DNA from: a virus
UHGV virus genome: UHGV-0134778
DNA: 64,000 nucleotides
Direction: 5' to 3' (one strand)
Positions 3,344 to 58,823 of the stretch are shown piece by piece (position 1 is the stretch's first letter; the number at the start of each line of letters is the position of its first letter). The notes under the pieces are model-generated. The model was not told the origin of the DNA and ran no database searches. It saw only the letters and a list, made by a program, of their open reading frames with translations. Both the position numbers and the translations under genes were made by a program.

Positions 3344-3814
3344 TTACTGTCCAATTTTAAAGGTTGCAGATTCAAGCAGCACATCGTAATGCCGCATAGC
3401 CTCGTTGAAGCCCTTCTCTTGTGCCCACTGCTCACTAACAGTAGGGTTACTAAACTGACCAGCCTCAATAACAAACTGGATAGCTTTGGCCCCTGTGTCC
3501 CCCATCTGCCTAAGAACAGCCTCTGCACTTGATCCTCTAGCCATAGCTCTCAACAATTTTTCTGTCAAGGTCTGTAGTTGCGTGCTGTGAAATGCAAAGG
3601 CCGTCTCCATGAAATTGCGAACAGGCAGCCCGTTCCAACCGAAGTTGTGAATAGCTGCCAATGTTGCCATATTTAAGCCTGACGGGTGAGGTTCATCATA
3701 AAAGCCGTAGGTTATTGTTTTGCTTTCAAGTTTCACAAGGTCTTTATAAAAGCGATCTAAACGCTTTAGGTTGAACCTTGTTTGACATTTAACCTTTAGC
3801 ATTATATTCCTCAC
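3344..3814 (-). CDS. hypothetical virion protein (head completion or neck)
   Basis: 156-aa ORF in late array. Confidence 0.45.
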   Translation of the reverse strand: MRNIMLKVKCQTRFNLKRLDRFYKDLVKLESKTITYGFYDEPHPSGLNMATLAAIHNFGWNGLPVRNFMETAFAFHSTQLQTLTEKLLRAMARGSSAEAVLRQMGDTGAKAIQFVIEAGQFSNPTVSEQWAQEKGFNEAMRHYDVLLESATFKIGQ

Positions 3815-10866: not shown

Positions 10867-11837
10867 TTATATTCAAGGGTGGTCGCAACACCACCCTCCG
10901 CACCATTACGTGCTGCTGCATGTTACCATGCAGAGTAGACTATATCACCACCCATCTCAGGGGTGCTTCGCTTTTCGAGCGCCATAAGCTTGCGCCCTAC
11001 TCCCTCTCGGGATAGTCGTTGAACTACATTACCAATCATAATTGTTTGAAATATAGGTGTAAGTCTTACGGTCTTTTATTCCTTTAACAACACTAAAACT
11101 TACTCCCCACTTCTTAGCTATTTTATTTACACACAAAGCCCTACCACTAAGATCCTCGCAGATACCTATTATCTTGTGCTCACTTATCCTATTAGAGGTT
11201 GGCACTTTTCTAAAGTTAAATTCTTTAGAAATATCTGGGTATACTGAGCCATTCTTTATACCACTTACAAGTGGTTGATTGACACCAAACATTTCACAAA
11301 TGTCTTTTACCCTTGCACCTTGCTCTAACAGCCTACATATTTCAAGAGCAGTGGCATCATCTAGGGACCTGTATTTATTGACATAGTCCTTTTTAAGTCC
11401 CATTTCATGAGCGTGATGTGTGTTTTCCTCAGGCGTTGTCCACTCAAGGTTCCATGCGGCGTTATTCAACTTATTGCCATCCAGGTGGTTTACTTGAGTT
11501 TTCACACTGGGGTTATCATTATCTACAAAAGTCATAGCAATAACTCTGTGGACTAGCACTTGGAACTTTTTCCCGCCCTCGCACAAAGTGACCATAGCAT
11601 AGCCAGTCTTTTTCTGCACATTAGGATGGAGGAATTTATTAGAATACAGGCTGTAAATTCTGCCATCGTATGTAGCACAATAATGATTGTAACCTAAAAA
11701 GCCTAAATTTTTCATTTCAAACATCTCCCTACTACAGGTTCGGAAGGGTAATTATAGCTGCTGATTGTCCGTTTAGCAATCGGATTTTCCAGCAATTAAC
11801 GAAGTTATTCGACGTGCATTTCTGCACGAAGCCACTA
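10867..11837 (-). mobile_element. putative group I intron carrying an HNH homing endonuclease gene, inserted in the large terminase gene
   Basis: About 970 nt separate the ATPase and nuclease halves of terL; GC-rich hairpin-forming sequence flanks a free-standing HNH ORF; exact splice sites not determined. Confidence 0.5.
11029..11724 (-). CDS. HNH homing endonuclease
   Basis: 231 aa with HNH_3-like motif (QVNHLDGNKLNNAAWNLEWTTPEEN) and a C-terminal DNA-binding-like region; embedded between the terL halves. Confidence 0.7.
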   Translation of the reverse strand: MFEMKNLGFLGYNHYCATYDGRIYSLYSNKFLHPNVQKKTGYAMVTLCEGGKKFQVLVHRVIAMTFVDNDNPSVKTQVNHLDGNKLNNAAWNLEWTTPEENTHHAHEMGLKKDYVNKYRSLDDATALEICRLLEQGARVKDICEMFGVNQPLVSGIKNGSVYPDISKEFNFRKVPTSNRISEHKIIGICEDLSGRALCVNKIAKKWGVSFSVVKGIKDRKTYTYISNNYDW

Positions 11838-13935: not shown

Positions 13936-14034
13936 GGTGCTAGGTGATGGAATCGAACCACCTATGTATTCAACGACTACCTCGTCTATTTTCAGGATTA
14001 AAAATCCTCGCCCTTGCCAAAGGGCTTACCTAGC
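13936..14034 (-). tRNA. atypical tRNA-like element (99 nt): possible non-canonical tRNA or tRNA pseudogene
   Basis: Perfect 7-bp acceptor stem (GCTAGGT/ACCTAGC), canonical D arm and T arm (GGTGG-TTCGATT-CCATC), but A8-A9 instead of U8, an AGGATT-TTT-AATCCT hairpin in place of a standard anticodon arm, and a ~31-nt insert containing a second hairpin; no CCA encoded. Confidence 0.35.
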
Positions 14035-14428: not shown

Positions 14429-14503
14429 TGGCACCCCGTACTGGACTCGAACCAGTGTCAACGGCTTAGAAGGCCGCTGCTTTATCCACTAAGCTAACAG
14501 GGC
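14429..14503 (-). tRNA. tRNA-Arg (anticodon TCT)
   Basis: Acceptor GCCCTGT/ACGGGGT with two G-U pairs, D arm GCTT/AAGC, anticodon stem-loop GCGGC-CTTCTAA-GCCGT, T arm ACTGG-TTCGAGT-CCAGT, encoded CCA. Confidence 0.8.
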
Positions 14504-14599
14504 ACTGGGTGGCTTTCTTTTACACCTGAGCCGCCAGAAAAGGTGGGAGACCATGTTTATAATATTACACTGTTAGGCAAAGTTTGTCAAGAAAATATT

Positions 14600-14938
14600 T
14601 TAACTATTGCCAACAGGCTGTATTTCTGTGGTAAATGGCATAAAAGGTGCTGGTTTTTCAGCCTCTTCTACTACCACCTCTTCCTCTTCACCAAACATCT
14701 CATCATATTCTTCCTGCATTCGGTCTGCCTTATCAAGAACATACTCTGCAATGCTTTGACGAATATTTTGTTTGGTTTTCGGGTCCAACATCAGCTCTCT
14801 TAAAACTTTGTGAGCTTCTGGAACCATCGCTATAAAAGATTCCTTCATATCAAGAATGTTCTTCTCTAGCTGAATGGCGTTGGACTCCTCTTTCAGAGGT
14901 CTGCCTCTACGGCGACGCTTTTTAGTTGTATCCGCCAT
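14600..14938 (-). CDS. hypothetical basic/acidic protein, possible DNA-binding (KKRRRRGRP N-terminus)
   Basis: ORF-track ORF trimmed to the ATG (MADTTKK...) preceded by GGAGG; Arg/Lys-rich N-terminus with RGRP AT-hook-like motif and acidic C-terminus. Confidence 0.5.
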   Translation of the reverse strand: MADTTKKRRRRGRPLKEESNAIQLEKNILDMKESFIAMVPEAHKVLRELMLDPKTKQNIRQSIAEYVLDKADRMQEEYDEMFGEEEEVVVEEAEKPAPFMPFTTEIQPVGNS

Positions 14939-14966
14939 GTTTCCTCCATTATCACGTGATAGGTGG

Positions 14967-14995
14967 ATTTTATCACGGCAAATACTGATTGTCAA
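14967..14995 (-). promoter_or_regulatory. sigma70-like promoter for the 14600-14938 gene, with a 10-bp palindrome downstream
   Basis: On minus strand TTGACA-N17-TAAAAT; perfect palindrome ATCACGTGAT (14951-14960) lies between the -10 element and the RBS. Confidence 0.5.
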
Positions 14996-15283
14996 GTTCG
15001 CCGCAGGGTGGTATTCCCTGCGACTTGCCCAGCGTCCTGGACCAGCAAGACCCAACAAGTGGGTTACCAGATACCCATTACCGCGCTCTGGCTCGACCTT
15101 ATTACAGGTTGGCTGGGGTCACATCGTCATGTGCTGGCTGCCCCTACCATTTTAAGTGTGGTGCACTATCAAGCCCTCTAAGGGGAACTCAGACTTCTCC
15201 GAACCCTGTTTCAAAGCATCCGGAGATAAAGCCATCAAACTCATCTTTAAATTGGATATTCATCATGATACACGAAAACAACC

Positions 15284-15526
15284 TCATTGTAAAGCACAAA
15301 TAAATAAAACATACTTAATTTGTTTGTTATCGGGCTCAGGGTAGAAGTAGAAGATCTTGCTATCACCAATCTGAACACCACCATCCCAACAACATAAACC
15401 ATAACCAGTATTCATACAAGCTAAGTCGTTGGCAAAATCTATTGCATCATCTAGTGCACGAAATTCACCTTCATCTTCTAAATAATCCTCATTCATGGAA
15501 CGGAAAACGAGCTTAACCTTAAACAT
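15284..15526 (-). CDS. hypothetical protein
   Basis: 80-aa acidic ORF. Confidence 0.45.
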   Translation of the reverse strand: MFKVKLVFRSMNEDYLEDEGEFRALDDAIDFANDLACMNTGYGLCCWDGGVQIGDSKIFYFYPEPDNKQIKYVLFICALQ

Positions 15527-15602
15527 AGCATTACCTGTAGACCTCGTAAGTTAAAATTGTATCACATCATATTGCAGATCTTATCAGGTAACATTATTTT
15601 TG

Positions 15603-15791
15603 TCAACAGATTCCGGCCTTATCCTTCCTGTCTGCGTATTCTTTAATCGCAACCTCACCTGCATTGGTAACCAGATCTTCAAAGTAATTCTCAAGCTCCT
15701 CGTCAATGTCCGGTGACCAGCTCTTTTTCCTGTCAGTGTGAATTGCAGACTTGTTGAACTTATTACAATTCTTTGCTACCGGATTGTTCAT
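15603..15791 (-). CDS. hypothetical protein
   Basis: 62-aa ORF in co-directional array. Confidence 0.3.
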   Translation of the reverse strand: MNNPVAKNCNKFNKSAIHTDRKKSWSPDIDEELENYFEDLVTNAGEVAIKEYADRKDKAGIC

Positions 15792-15801
15792 TAAGCTCTC
15801 C

Positions 15802-16380
15802 TCAACGTTCGTAGTAAATCTTATTCAACATTACCTCATCGTTTGCAGAAAGGATATCAAGATATGCATCACCAAATCTGCCTGCAACAACCTCTGCATG
15901 ATACATCACTTCGTTAACATCGTCAAGAGTGATAACAGGATGACCATATCTTTCTGAATATTGTCTCAGTGTGCGATGCAACGAGTCGTCATCATATGCA
16001 GACTTTTTAATATCACAAACACGACGAATGGCCTTGATGTCGAAAAAACCTGTGCGATACCACCCAAGAAAAAAGTTCCGTGTAGTGTCAACATCTACAT
16101 CAATACCATTAAGAACCTTATCTACAAGATAGCTGTCATCCTTTGGACTAGCGTCCTTAGTGCGAATGTAGTTGCCATCTTTTCCAGGTGATAGCTCCTT
16201 CTCATCACCAACCTGCATGCCATCATTTGGCGGTGTTAGCCACTTATCAGGATGCTTACGATCACGAGCGTTAGAATGATTACGCTGGAAACCTGGCTTC
16301 CACTTGAAAGTTTTCTCCATCTGTTCTTCATTCTGATAACGTTTTGCAATCTTTTCACTGGCATCTTTGCGTGAACTCAT
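15802..16380 (-). CDS. hypothetical protein
   Basis: 192-aa ORF; no recognised motif. Confidence 0.5.
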   Translation of the reverse strand: MSSRKDASEKIAKRYQNEEQMEKTFKWKPGFQRNHSNARDRKHPDKWLTPPNDGMQVGDEKELSPGKDGNYIRTKDASPKDDSYLVDKVLNGIDVDVDTTRNFFLGWYRTGFFDIKAIRRVCDIKKSAYDDDSLHRTLRQYSERYGHPVITLDDVNEVMYHAEVVAGRFGDAYLDILSANDEVMLNKIYYER

Positions 16381-16884
16381 AGCAGCCTCCTCTTCAAGTT
16401 ATAGAAAAACTCACTGTATCGCTTTGTAACGAGCTTTTCTATCAAACTGGTGCGATTGCCTTACTTGGTATAGTTTATATAGCTGTGGAGCGATTTAGGG
16501 GACTTCTTGTCAGTTTCCACACATAACTTTATCCGAACTCGCGCGGGAGGCTCTCAACCGACTCCTTCCGGCGCTGGCAAGCTTTCGTCGGTGGTCCACA
16601 TTAGTGCTCGGCCTTTGGCCTGCGCTATCGCTTCGCTCCCACACATGTTAACAGTCCTGCATGTATGCACTTCTGTTATTGTGTGCACTATGGAGGCCCG
16701 GCATCTCGCCCCCCCCGTAGGCGAGTGCCAATGAAGGGCCGACACTACCCATAATAAGTAATAAATTTAAAACATGGTACTTAGGATCTAGTATATTCTA
16801 CATAAGTTAAGTATATGTACTTTAGTACCATAAGTACTAGATCTTTTATTTTTATTATTTAGTTATTTTAGTTATATTCTTTAT

Positions 16885-16970
16885 GTGTCCGTATCACGGA
16901 CAGTTAGTGTCCGTATTACGGGCAGATGTGTCCGCGTGACGGACAGTAGTGTCCGTATCACGGACAGTTA
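16885..16970. repeat. iteron-like array: four tandem 21-22 bp repeats, each with the palindromic core TGTCCGTATCACGGACA
   Basis: Copies at about 16885, 16907, 16928 and 16949 (GTGTCCGTATCACGGACAGTTA and close variants); immediately preceded by an AT-rich tract at ~16790-16880. Confidence 0.8.
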
Positions 16971-17041
16971 CTAACCTCTGTTCCAGAGTGAACATAAAAC
17001 ATACAAATCCTTATAGTACAGATGTTTAAGTTTTTACTGGT

Positions 17042-17392
17042 CTAACCAGTTGTTGACATTCGAATAACTTCTTCTGGTGGCAAAACTTTGGAAAATGTGC
17101 ATCTTTTACCTCTCCCTTGTGTGGATATTTCAACCACTCCTGCACATTCTAAAGTTTTAACGCACGCTGCTGCTTTTGTTTTCTTTATCCCAACATCTGC
17201 TGCAATTTTCCTTGTGCTTGGTGTGAAGCGTGAATTTTCTCCAAGCTTATACCAGTTGTGCAGGTAGCAGTATACGATCTTGTCATATAAGTCAAGAACA
17301 ACAACCTCCCCAGTTGTGTCATTCAAAACTTTTGACATAGACAGTATTTCAAGGGGGACTTTAAGATATAGCAGCTTATCCCCATCTTTCAT
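17042..17392 (-). CDS. putative HTH DNA-binding protein
   Basis: 116 aa; segment TRKIAADVGIKKTKAAACVKTLECAGVVEI has a helix-turn-helix-like pattern; AGGAGA RBS; gene ends ~70 bp from the iteron array. Confidence 0.45.
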   Translation of the reverse strand: MKDGDKLLYLKVPLEILSMSKVLNDTTGEVVVLDLYDKIVYCYLHNWYKLGENSRFTPSTRKIAADVGIKKTKAAACVKTLECAGVVEISTQGRGKRCTFSKVLPPEEVIRMSTTG

Positions 17393-55733: not shown

Positions 55734-55942
55734 TAAACACACATGCATCTGAAGAGACATCCAAAGGAGTGACTATATGTCCCTTGGCTGAGCCAGTGAA
55801 AGAGGAAAACTTAGATTCTGAAGATTCTCCATCTTCGCTCCAGGTAGATCCTGAGGCTGATGACCTAACGTGGGAAGACATCGTAGACATCTGGTTCTCC
55901 ATTATGCCTGAGCACGAAGAGTTCAGAGGTGGCAGACTATGA
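55730..55942 (+). CDS. hypothetical acidic protein
   Basis: C-terminal 70 aa of ORF-track ORF 55529-55942, starting at an internal ATG coupled to the upstream peptide; alternative is the full 137-aa ORF. Confidence 0.35.
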   Translation: MINTHASEETSKGVTICPLAEPVKEENLDSEDSPSSLQVDPEADDLTWEDIVDIWFSIMPEHEEFRGGRL

Positions 55943-56063
55943 AGCACCGAGCCCACACAGGTTCCTCATGCTAAAGCATGGCCTGAAGAGGCAAACGTGC
56001 ATAATTCCTGTGCATTGGAACGTATAAAACCCTGTTCACACTCTCATTTCTAGAGGAGATTTC

Positions 56064-56279: not shown

Positions 56280-57804
56280 CACACAATTAGTTGCCCGGCT
56301 AAAGTGCTGGAAGCACCCATAACATCTTCCAACTAAATTTCCTACCAACACAGTTACTTACCCACCACACATGACTGTTTGCTTGTTTAGTGAGCAGTCA
56401 TCCCTTGACATTCTTGCCTATCTTGATAAAATTAAGTTCTTCTCTTTTCTTTTACCGAGTAATTCGGGTTTTCTGTTCTCTTCGGTTTGAAGGGGTATGG
56501 AGATACACCTGAGTGAACAGGGTGAACAACCGAACCTTTAGCTATGGCATTAGCATGGCGAAGCGGACGGGTGACGAAAGAGGGGCCGGAGGACACCAGT
56601 CACTGCCATATAGTATATGGGTGATAACCTGAAGAGTCTGAATAAGTGTTTAAGTACCAGTCAGAGGAAAAGGTGAATGGTAGCCGAAGGGGGAGGGGGG
56701 TTTCTTATATCTTTAATTTGTATACTTTATATACACTTGTAAACCAATTCAATTAGGATCTGTTTACCACACAAAGTGGATGGAGACAAATATCACCTAT
56801 TAAACTTGAATTATTTATAGAAAATACCACAACACTACTTAAGTCTTTGATTTTACACACAAATCCTACAGATACTCACCCTCCATATTTAACATACTTG
56901 TAACATATCCCATACTCTACCTGTCTGATCAATTTACCCAACTACATCCCCATATTTTTCCTGTCTGTACTACCCCTGCCCCGCCGGGAGTCCCGTCATA
57001 TCTGGCTTCCCAGCAAATATCACACCCACAAATATCATTGCCTGAAGAGGGTTTCATCCCATAATACACACCTTGCCTGAAGAGCGATTCATACACCAAC
57101 TAAATTTTTTAATTGACCCCTCCCCGCCGCCGGAGAGGTTGGCTTTTCCCACACAGGCCTGAAGAGTCAGCCAGAAATATCTGAACAGGCCCAGTTATAC
57201 CACGATTTTGACATGACCGACAGGAGTGCTACCCTGTCAGGAGCCGGTAGCGACTGGAGTGCTGCCAGGCGGACGAAATGGGAATACTTCTCATTCTTAT
57301 AACAATTCTCAAATATCGAGGCAGTGAGGCAAATTAATAGGTGAGGCCGTTCACACAGTGGCACAACATTTGCAACCTATCTTGTGGGGTGAATGAGAAT
57401 ACCTATCATTGTGAGAATAGTTATCATTACGGGCAATTTAACATAATACCCATTATGCGCACCACTGGCGATACATACAGGGATTGATAACATGGGTTAC
57501 TGTTTACGCACATAACAATTATATTTCTTACTATTTGTGCGGGATATAGTTAGCAACCAATAGATTAGATATTGACCTGCGGACTTCTGACCGTCCAGAC
57601 GTCTAAACGCCCACACAACAAGGGTTATACATACATTCCTGAATGTAAACAGGGCCGCAAAAATGCTACCATACCAGTTTGTAAATTTTTCATGCAGCAC
57701 TTGACAAAGAGGAGAAAAACTTGTCTGACACTTTTGCCACTTTTGACACTTTTACCTTTGACACAATATGACACAATAACGGCTGTTACTATTCCATATC
57801 TCAC

Positions 57805-57858
57805 TGTTTACGCATAGACTGTTTACGCCTGAATAGTTTACGCCCAAACTGTTTACAC
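57805..57858. repeat. four direct repeats of TGTTTACGC-like 9-mers with 15-bp period
   Basis: Copies at 57805, 57820, 57835 and 57850 (TGTTTACGC, TGTTTACGC, AGTTTACGC, TGTTTACAC). Confidence 0.8.
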
Positions 57859-57869
57859 AGAGATGATGA

Positions 57870-58163
57870 GCCATGCCATTCGTTTGCATGAAAACAATTA
57901 ACAAGATAACAATTAACAAGTTAATAATCTTTCGCTGGCTATGCCAGGTGACTAGGTCACCCCTTCGGGCGTTTATATGACATAATATAAAAGCAGGGCA
58001 ACTATTAGAAGATCTATAGTTGCCTTGCTTGTTATGTCATGATTAACTAAATACAAGGCAACTATGATCTGAGTAATAGATTGCAGAAAAACTATCACGG
58101 GGGTGATGGTTACTGCTTTTATATTATGTCGCGACTCCGTCGCGCCATGCCATTCGTTTGCAT
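57870..58163. repeat. composite repeat locus: 20-bp direct repeats flanking inverted repeats and a 28-bp palindrome
   Basis: GCCATGCCATTCGTTTGCAT at 57870-57889 and 58144-58163; inverted 18-mer TGACATAATATAAAAGCAG at ~57978-57996 vs ~58113-58130; palindrome GGCAACTAT-N10-ATAGTTGCC at ~57997-58024. Confidence 0.75.
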
Positions 58164-58823
58164 AGTTGCCTTATTGTTACAGGTAAAATAATTACATTAT
58201 TAATTATTTCTTATCTTTCTCTTAGTCATCTAATGATTCCAGTCAGTATAGTAATGTACAGTAAACATTAGACGACTAAAGATTTCTCTGTTTATGATAA
58301 CTCATCGTGATAATTTCGGGCTGTTTACGAAAAATGTTGACACCTGAGCTGATTTATGTTATGCAGTCTACACGAATAATTATTTTATGCAGGTATTGAC
58401 TATTCCGTTATTCTGTGGTTGGAATAAATACTTTGCAGGCTATAGAATGGCGTGCGTACGTGAATTCTGAGATCTGGCGGCTATAGTTATACTCGATTTT
58501 TCGCGTAGAACACGCTTTAGATGCTGTGTAAGTGTATGACTTATAAAGATTTTTAGTTGTTGACAAGATATTGGAGATGTGCATCAGGTTAAAATTTGTG
58601 CAATAGCGGCATTACGTGCACTTTTGGGAGAGAAAACGGGTAAAAATGGACTTGCTACCACACAATGAAAAATTATGCAATAGTTATTTTCCATGTATAT
58701 TTGTACAGTATGTGGGATTGATGGCTAGTCAATTATTCCACTTGCCAGGTAGGGCCGTTTATGGTAGGAGAAGAGCAGACAAAAAGAAAGGGGCCTAAGC
58801 CCCTTGATAATTCAGTTAAAAAA

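Follow-up and report, generated by a model that had tools for sequence, protein, structure and literature searches.

The 64,000 nucleotides of the virus genome UHGV-0134778 analysed in this work (in the following, the window) contain, beside an array of iterons, an island of GC-rich DNA at positions 16480-16745, and the question raised by this locus is what the island is and what it may do at this place. A preliminary description, made from the sequence of the window alone, had presented it as a non-coding, structure-rich segment and had proposed conservation and covariation in relatives as a check. Both were found, and its open reading frames turned out not to be conserved as proteins. The element, whose existence is confirmed, is conserved, structured and non-coding. 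It is probably a hitherto undescribed RNA, part of a likely origin module of rV5-like phages, and common to candidate satellite plasmids.

The phage and the gene neighbourhood

The DNA around the island is 95-99% identical to that of the rV5-group Escherichia phages (genus Vequintavirus), and by this identity the window is an rV5-like phage of that genus. The intergenic region of 671 bp (16380-17050) is found near full length in 119 phage records, and the GC-rich island is present in every one of the 119 Vequintavirus members found. Eighteen records bearing the name 'Campylobacter phage' contain rV5-like genomes with about 96% identity to the window; their host label looks doubtful, and the one record inspected is flagged UNVERIFIED.

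The minus strand carries the genes up to about 18.5 kb, including all those flanking the island. Reading leftward, the order is a phosphoesterase gene, the gene of a 116 amino acid winged-helix protein, the iterons, the AT-rich tract, the GC-rich island, the gene of a 192 amino acid hypothetical protein (15802-16380), small genes and seven tRNAs. The 116 amino acid protein matches the PHROG 12838 'replication initiation protein' (E = 2e-79) and also Pfam DUF6945 and HTH_36; the initiator label is an annotation and not an assay result, and in other records the protein is a 'transcriptional regulator'. This rep-like protein occurs in 119 records, Vequintavirus only, and the 192 amino acid protein in 120 records, confined to the same genus; both flanking proteins being restricted to one genus, a search for synteny in other genera of the Vequintavirinae gave nothing. 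The features of the locus are collected in Table 1.

At 13936-14034 on the minus strand ARAGORN predicts a tRNA-like gene of 99 nt, the anticodon of which has four bases (atcc). With Rfam this gene scores only 35.5 bits; it is annotated as tRNA-OTHER in phage pangalan, and the rV5 annotation of the region has no tRNA there. A 'first' GC-rich island (14985-15225) reaches 61% GC and is located between the promoter annotated in rV5 as P74 and a small gene. Its minus strand fold has a z-score of -2.6, it is without Rfam match, and it has no similarity to the island at 16480-16745.

Table 1. Features of the island and its surroundings; positions refer to the window unless a plasmid or contig is named.
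Feature	Position	Strand	Basis or remark
Candidate extended -10 promoter TGGTATAGT, without -35	16466-16474	+	read from sequence
Variable 5' segment with motif ATTTAGGGG (16493-16501)	16482-16539	+	variable-site density 0.55 per nt
Conserved core domain, about 105 nt, P1-P4	16541-16645	+	variable-site density 0.13 per nt
Core helix P1 (closing)	16543-46 with 16628-31	+	RNAalifold
Core helix P2	16557-62 with 16587-92	+	RNAalifold, covariation
Invariant 24-nt loop of P2	16563-86	+	
Core helix P3	16593-99 with 16604-06 and 16610-13	+	RNAalifold
Core helix P4	16616-19 with 16624-27	+	RNAalifold, covariation
End of the core 3' tail, CCCACACA	16638-45	+	
Variable hairpin H5 (CACACA...TGTGTG)	16640-16685	+	folds; variable-site density 0.38
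GC-rich hairpin E, 46 nt	16695-16740	+	variable-site density 0.10
AT-rich tract, 20% GC, dyad symmetry, two GATC sites; presumed DNA-unwinding element	16746-16884		inverted repeats I2, I6
Four iterons, GTGTCCGTATCACGGACAGTTA-like, 21-22 bp spacing	16885-16970		repeat family D1
Winged-helix protein, 116 aa, putative replication initiator	17042-17392	-	PHROG 12838, Pfam DUF6945, HTH_36
Plasmid intrinsic terminator	L021 4967-4995	+	closes element
Terminator-like site of the divergent IMG/VR phage	L005 1959-1995	+	same edge of element

Coding potential of the island

With 56.8% GC, against 42.7% for the whole window, the island outranks 99.98% of all 266-bp windows and is the top non-overlapping one; it directly abuts the 20%-GC tract, which bears out the unusual neighbourhood of GC-rich and AT-rich blocks that had first drawn attention to it.

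Tests of coding and conservation were done on an alignment of 16 Vequintavirus copies. The island contains four open reading frames of 34-75 amino acids, short and overlapping as originally stated; the accompanying statement that they lack a ribosome binding site needs correction for one of them, as AGGGG is found 5 nt upstream of the TTG ORF at 16507. This plus strand ORF is frameshifted in relatives, and the island ORFs in general vary in frame, length or sequence between phages. The RefSeq entry of rV5 annotates the 56 amino acid ORF78 inside the island, as does ECML-10, and other phage records call one to three small CDS within it; the discussion section of the rV5 proteome paper makes no mention of the ORF78 peptide. 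Indels of 1, 2, 3 and 18 nt, some of them frame-breaking, occur among the 16 copies. Variable sites at codon positions 1/2/3 number 5/11/6 in the ORF78 frame, without excess at the third position, and 11/11/8 in the main plus strand frame.

That the island encodes a small protein, be it ORF78 on the minus strand or another short ORF, can practically be discounted: a frame of 55-56 amino acids is open in 12 of the 16 copies, but the ORF78 start is a GTG without preceding Shine-Dalgarno sequence, the window and P203 have a truncated or altered frame, Aya and the IMG/VR phage a fused one, and the plasmid homologues described below do not preserve it, and stop-poor GC-rich DNA yields such ORFs on both strands. 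The island is non-coding, and the more than 100 phage annotations which call a protein gene here are probably wrong.

Folding and conserved parts

The long complementary stretches reported earlier were readily recovered, hairpins E and H5 being present in every fold. As a single sequence the plus strand folds with z = -2.4 to -2.6 against shuffles and the minus strand with z = -1.7. As these z-scores are only modest, the case for structure rests on the comparison between copies and not on folding energy. The proposed Rfam check matched no known family: Rfam 15 at gathering threshold finds six tRNAs in the window and nothing else, and with E up to 10 the region 14500-17100 gives only rli43, at 22 bits against a threshold of 100 and mostly over the AT-rich tract.

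Between the phage copies the density of variable sites is 0.40-0.57 per nt in the 5' segment and in both flanks, compared to 0.13 in the core (measured over 16540-16645) and 0.10 in hairpin E (over 16691-16740), and by this measure the core and hairpin E are under strong purifying selection. Hairpin E is composed of 5 + 4 + 6 bp with a bulged U, an asymmetric AAUGAA internal loop and a C-run of variable length in its loop. H5 has lost 18 nt in rV5, A135 and Pr121LW, and its changes in pangalan are not compensated. The motif ATTTAGGGG of the variable 5' segment aligns with the plasmid copies and has four matches in the window versus 0.95 expected.

The C-run of hairpin E (16710-16717) is one to two bases longer in the window than in the 15 other phage copies, which could be a homopolymer length polymorphism or a sequencing error. 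The octamer CCCACACA, with which the core ends, occurs 10 times in the whole window versus 2.1 expected by shuffling, and its four non-coding copies (16638, 55952, 57148 and 57610) are all on the plus strand. A DnaA box GTTTCCACA at 16514 matches at eight of nine positions; it was rejected, being destroyed in Aya and the IMG/VR phage.

Homologues in small plasmids of E. coli

Unannotated DNA of small circular E. coli 'plasmids' of 13.2-13.9 kb matches the island over about 63 nt at the core and about 55 nt at hairpin E; the phage and plasmid copies are about 85% identical, in core and E only. A covariance model of this core, termed type I, finds one copy per replicon, and a plasmid record of 39.6 kb holds three copies of the element. 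A metagenome scan added two plasmid-like contigs and one phage contig; of three further loci, two were unrelated matches and one belonged to a second record of the IMG/VR phage, and IMG/VR holds just one rV5-like contig. A gapped three-motif pattern search for distant homologues found nothing. The exact 19-mer gave 11 hits in species-representative genomes, all in unrelated GC-rich bacteria, which we judged to be due to chance.

The plasmid genes include those for the major head protein, a Dit-like tail protein, the tape-measure protein and a neck or tail-completion protein with 48% identity to the window ORF 3344-3814, together with a Rep candidate of O-like or winged-helix type; a terminase, portal or polymerase was not recognised in the plasmids of about 13 kb. 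These plasmids look like undescribed satellites of rV5-like phages. Members of the family (L004 = NZ_CP020521.1, L042-L045, L021 and L024) come from E. coli of human, cattle, pig and chicken.

Four plasmids (L030, L039-L041) carry at the same position, between otherwise similar flanks, a different hairpin with an invariant loop of 18 nt, which we term type II; these cores go undetected by the type I model, and type II has no match in the phage collection. The core type assorts independently of the iteron type, since L008 and L041 share iterons and differ in their cores, and the same holds for L003 and L006 versus L039. The RNA is therefore not matched to a particular initiator. A protein partner tracking the core type was sought; the sole candidate, a slot gene, fails, as L024 combines a type I core with the 'type II' slot gene. 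This slot, beside a small HTH gene, holds unrelated genes (L004 1257-1778; L043 8618-9328; L044 339-926; L045 4394-4981), whose products are a 173 amino acid hydrophobic protein in some plasmids and proteins of 195 or 236 amino acids, likewise hydrophobic at the N-terminus, in others. The slot has the behaviour of a cargo hotspot.

After the core, plasmids L006, L008, L009, L021, L030 and L041 contain zero to four cassettes, each bounded by the 8-nt direct repeat CCCACACA. The cassettes are mostly triple hairpins, often with CCCGAAGGG at the start. The difference between the empty site of L006 and the filled site of L008 is exactly one cassette and one repeat, and in L030 one cassette is inverted and placed after the terminator, which suggests small mobile or recombining palindromic units. 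The tandem, nearly identical repeats of about 34-40 nt beside a toxin gene that would be expected of a type III toxin-antitoxin RNA (ToxI-like) were not seen: the units between CCCACACA motifs differ in sequence and length, and the island has no direct-repeat family.

A triple-hairpin motif of about 55 nt (CUGGC..GCCAG, GUGAC..GUCAC, CCCUUCGGG) is found in the window at 55749-55805 (minus strand) and 57928-57972 (plus strand) and in L004 at 10882-10938, with 82-85% identity between the two phage sites and the Rep gene region of the plasmid; when the opposite strand is read, its architecture is that of the plasmid cassettes. The window also contains more than 2 kb (56280-58400), where rightward and leftward genes converge, without any ORF of at least 90 amino acids (four ORFs of 65-81 amino acids). 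Short repeats are densely packed there, namely GCCTGAAGAG four times (one of them just upstream, at 55985), CTGTTTACGC-like sequences five times, TTTGACAC four times, CCATGCCATTCGTTTGCAT twice and CCCACACA twice, with one more CCCACACA just upstream at 55952. The conserved non-coding region of 1.2 kb of the plasmids (L004 1-1170) has motifs of the same kinds and a 24-nt patch with 96% identity to window 57294-57317.

Covariation of the core and of hairpin E

Ten distinct phage cores and three distinct type I plasmid cores were aligned (13 sequences). RNAalifold, without any structure input, returned P2, P3, P4 and the closing P1 (GCGG/UCGC). P2 is ACCGAC/GUCGGU in phages versus GCUGCC/GGCAGC in plasmids, with three pairs changed on both sides, and its 24-nt loop is identical in all 13 sequences. 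P4 is UGGC/GCUA versus AUGC/GCAU, with two pairs changed on both sides. P3 shows changes from U·G to C-G and from A-U to G·U, and hairpin E has two double changes from G-C to U-A between the phages and plasmid NZ_CP020521.1. This makes seven double compensatory changes between phage and plasmid, which are seven independent pairs from few independent lineages, as the covariation comes essentially from one deep split. Paired cells amount to 94.4%, versus 34-58% when the 3' partners are slid by one to three columns, and none of 500 column shuffles reached the observed covariation score.

A pseudoknot of GCGCGGGAGG with CCUUCCGGCGC in the P2 loop was rejected, two of its pairs being mismatched in 8 of the 13 sequences; L039 and L041 have lost a similar pairing which had been proposed for type II.

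Strand and transcription signals

The direction of the element can be judged from pairs which are stable in one strand only. G·U pairs are present in P3 in 11 and in P4 in 9 of the 13 sequences, most phages among them, and would be A·C mismatches on the minus strand; changes from U·G to C-G and from A-U to G·U are tolerated; in Pr121LW, where 3 nt are naturally deleted, P4 forms anew with a U·G pair; and variants of the plasmid cassettes change A-U to G·U on the plus strand. In the plasmids examined, the series of hairpins closes in a canonical plus strand terminator (GCCUAAAGAG-loop-CUCUUUAGGC followed by UUUCAUUU), and a terminator-like site is found at the same edge in the IMG/VR phage (Table 1). 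G·U pairs in P3 and P4, the re-formed P4, the cassette variants and the terminators together favour the plus strand, antisense to the flanking genes. The terminal P2 pair of two phages points in the opposite direction, being A·C on the plus strand and U·G on the minus strand.

In the window hairpin E is followed by GACACUACCCAUAAUAAG, without the U-tract of an intrinsic terminator, and a terminator scan of 16300-17100 reported none, either after E or on the minus strand; with no terminator after hairpin E, a transcript could read through there. Upstream, TGGTATAGT could serve as an extended -10 element, from which the RNA might start near 16481-16482. This weak candidate is kept in 14 of the 16 Vequintavirus copies and disrupted in Aya and the IMG/VR phage, the two most divergent, and a simple consensus promoter scan did not report it; TGGTA-type extended -10 elements are frequent among rV5 promoters. 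Directly upstream of the plasmid element there is no convincing promoter, the only candidate being a 9/12 match about 300 nt upstream. The strong promoter of the plasmid rep operon lies left of the element and fires away from it, so that the element is not the leader of the rep mRNA in the plasmids.

A location at a probable replication origin

The phage iterons, tandem repeats at helical spacing and close to the 17-22 bp usual for such repeats, next to a tract of 20% GC, have the layout of an iteron-type origin, and this region is the probable replication origin of rV5-like phages; in the annotation of phage pangalan the iterons are a repeat_region. The rV5 genome paper reports that an origin was sought by skew analysis and not found, and our literature search gave no paper describing the element, the rV5 origin or these plasmids.

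In the plasmids, too, an AT-rich stretch comes after the element, and then about six iterons of 19 nt, the first three copies 23 bp apart. These iterons have no sequence kinship to those of the phage; the Rep proteins differ too. The order of island, AT-rich tract and iterons is nevertheless the same in phage and plasmids, and as this layout is kept in two replicons with differing initiators and iterons, the element appears to be tied to the origin region. Iteron origins such as RK2 oriV and RSF1010 oriV with its ssiA/ssiB likewise bring together initiator repeats, an AT-rich tract, a GC-rich structured segment and the initiator gene. The likeness is one of layout, with no sequence similarity seen, to an origin whose function is here predicted; moreover, the GC-rich part of the phage locus is about 265 bp long and has a covarying multi-helix fold, an invariant 24-nt loop and the signs of a transcription unit.

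Possible functions of the element

Our tentative reading, and the one we find best among those considered even if the chances are somewhat against it, is that the island constitutes the gene of a plus strand RNA, structured, non-coding and about 265 nt long, which belongs to the replication-origin module of rV5-like phages. Its transcription, the start of the RNA and the role in replication are what we infer from the arrangement of the sequence. The RNA would be antisense to the leftward genes and would point toward the AT-rich tract and the iterons. In its core P1 would close the three arms P2, P3 and P4, P2 displaying the invariant loop, and the GC-rich hairpin E would be terminal. Acting at the adjacent origin, the transcript or its 3' end could open or prime the AT-rich tract, as primer or activator transcripts do elsewhere; alternatively, an RNA-protein complex could form at the origin through the invariant loop. 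A plus strand RNA ending at the left edge of the unwinding tract would have the right polarity for priming or activating rightward synthesis. The primer transcripts of ColE1, T4 and T7 have this arrangement.

The parallel extends to the direction of the RNA toward an AT-rich unwinding element in ColE1 RNA II, the R-loop of T4 oriF/oriG, T7 phi1.1 and the transcriptional activation of ori-lambda, and in ColE1 RNA II also to a folded RNA whose structure matters. In distinction to these systems, the locus described here has a putative initiator gene and iterons too, and a transcript of the plasmids or the IMG/VR phage would meet a terminator before reaching the AT-rich tract. This disfavours a simple read-through primer model, and these terminators together with the independence of core and iterons suggest that the RNA may act as a discrete molecule via its invariant loop. 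No RNase H or R-loop feature was identified at the island, and no homology to the primer-transcript origins; the resemblance to them, as to ssi signals, does not go beyond layout.

A discrete molecule is also compatible with a structured plus strand RNA acting in trans outside replication, whether as a sponge or decoy, as a recognition signal between helper and satellite, or with a part in host takeover or anti-defence, the proximity to the origin then being a mere clustering of non-coding DNA. We regard this as unlikely. It would suit a plasmid RNA that forms a discrete unit with its terminator ahead of the origin, a core type independent of the type of iterons and Rep and of the variable cargo gene, an invariant loop resembling a binding surface, and the other short patches which plasmids and phage have in common. 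Against it, the order from island to iterons recurs in two unrelated replicons, no known RNA family is matched, and complementary targets of the P2 loop in the phage window and the plasmid do not exceed chance (best -28.9 kcal/mol, versus -28 to -33 for shuffled loops). The CI RNA of P4 and the c4 RNA of P1/P7 are comparable in being small structured RNAs of phage-related replicons, some of them in a plasmid-living satellite; they differ from the element in size and fold, Rfam, which includes the C4 family, gives no match, and no complementary targets were found.

The main rival of a different nature supposes that the plus strand hairpins are a signal for initiation on single-stranded DNA, exposed on unwinding and used by a primase or a helicase loader, on the model of ssiA/ssiB of RSF1010 or the three-hairpin complementary-strand origin of phage G4. 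A strand-asymmetric, hairpin-rich cluster adjoins the AT-rich tract and the iterons in both replicons, and strand-specific hairpin clusters beside origins are what the G4-type origin and the phiX-type primosome assembly sites consist of. Many hairpins of the plasmid cassettes have 3-nt GNA loops closed by C-G (GAA, GUA, GGA). Such C-G-closed GNA triloops are exceptionally stable in DNA. A satellite would, presumably, also profit from copying the replisome loading site of its helper. We nevertheless consider this explanation quite unlikely: the known signals act as DNA and measure about 40-140 nt, whereas here plus strand terminators exactly at the 3' edge speak for a transcription unit, G·T pairs in the P4 helix of 4 bp would be very weak in DNA, a multi-helix junction with an invariant 24-nt loop is more RNA-like, and the phage island itself has loops other than GNA triloops.

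It is improbable that the island functions on the minus strand, as an element for leader function, processing or termination in the leftward early operon which runs from rep through the 15802-16380 gene to the tRNAs. All flanking genes being on that strand, read-through transcripts should include the island, Watson-Crick helices fold on either strand, and the terminal P2 pair of two phages fits this direction better. On the other hand, the minus strand has the A·C mismatches and the weaker z-score, it lacks a terminator, and in the plasmids the leftward promoter is located downstream of the island, which leaves the island outside that mRNA.

Nor do we give much more than a marginal chance, slightly lower still, to selfish palindromic DNA, that is to a mobile or recombining hairpin module which landed near origins without benefit to the phage. 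Such behaviour is seen in the plasmid cassettes, which come and go between the CCCACACA repeats and in one case are inverted, related triple hairpins occur elsewhere in the window, and cores of type I and type II replace each other at a single site. The core and hairpin E themselves, however, are single copy at one fixed place and under strong purifying selection in 119 of 119 phages, and an invariant loop amid covarying stems is unexpected of junk DNA.

Significance for the rV5-like phages

The genus Vequintavirus, members of which are being characterised as candidates for therapy and biocontrol, obtains with this locus a concrete candidate for its unmapped replication origin. The structured element, which annotation pipelines skip or label as 'hypothetical protein', is a candidate RNA family new to Rfam. 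It also links lytic rV5-like phages to small phage-like plasmids of E. coli, and the common element provides a handle for testing this relationship.

A more far-reaching possibility, to which we assign a low probability, is that the RNA is a cofactor of the replication or DNA-handling machinery of the phage which has been copied by the satellite plasmids of about 13 kb. If this were true, a type I core would allow a satellite to couple its initiator and iterons to the machinery of the helper, type II would be the mark of satellites with another helper that is as yet unsampled, and the loop of an RNA hairpin would decide which satellite pairs with which helper.
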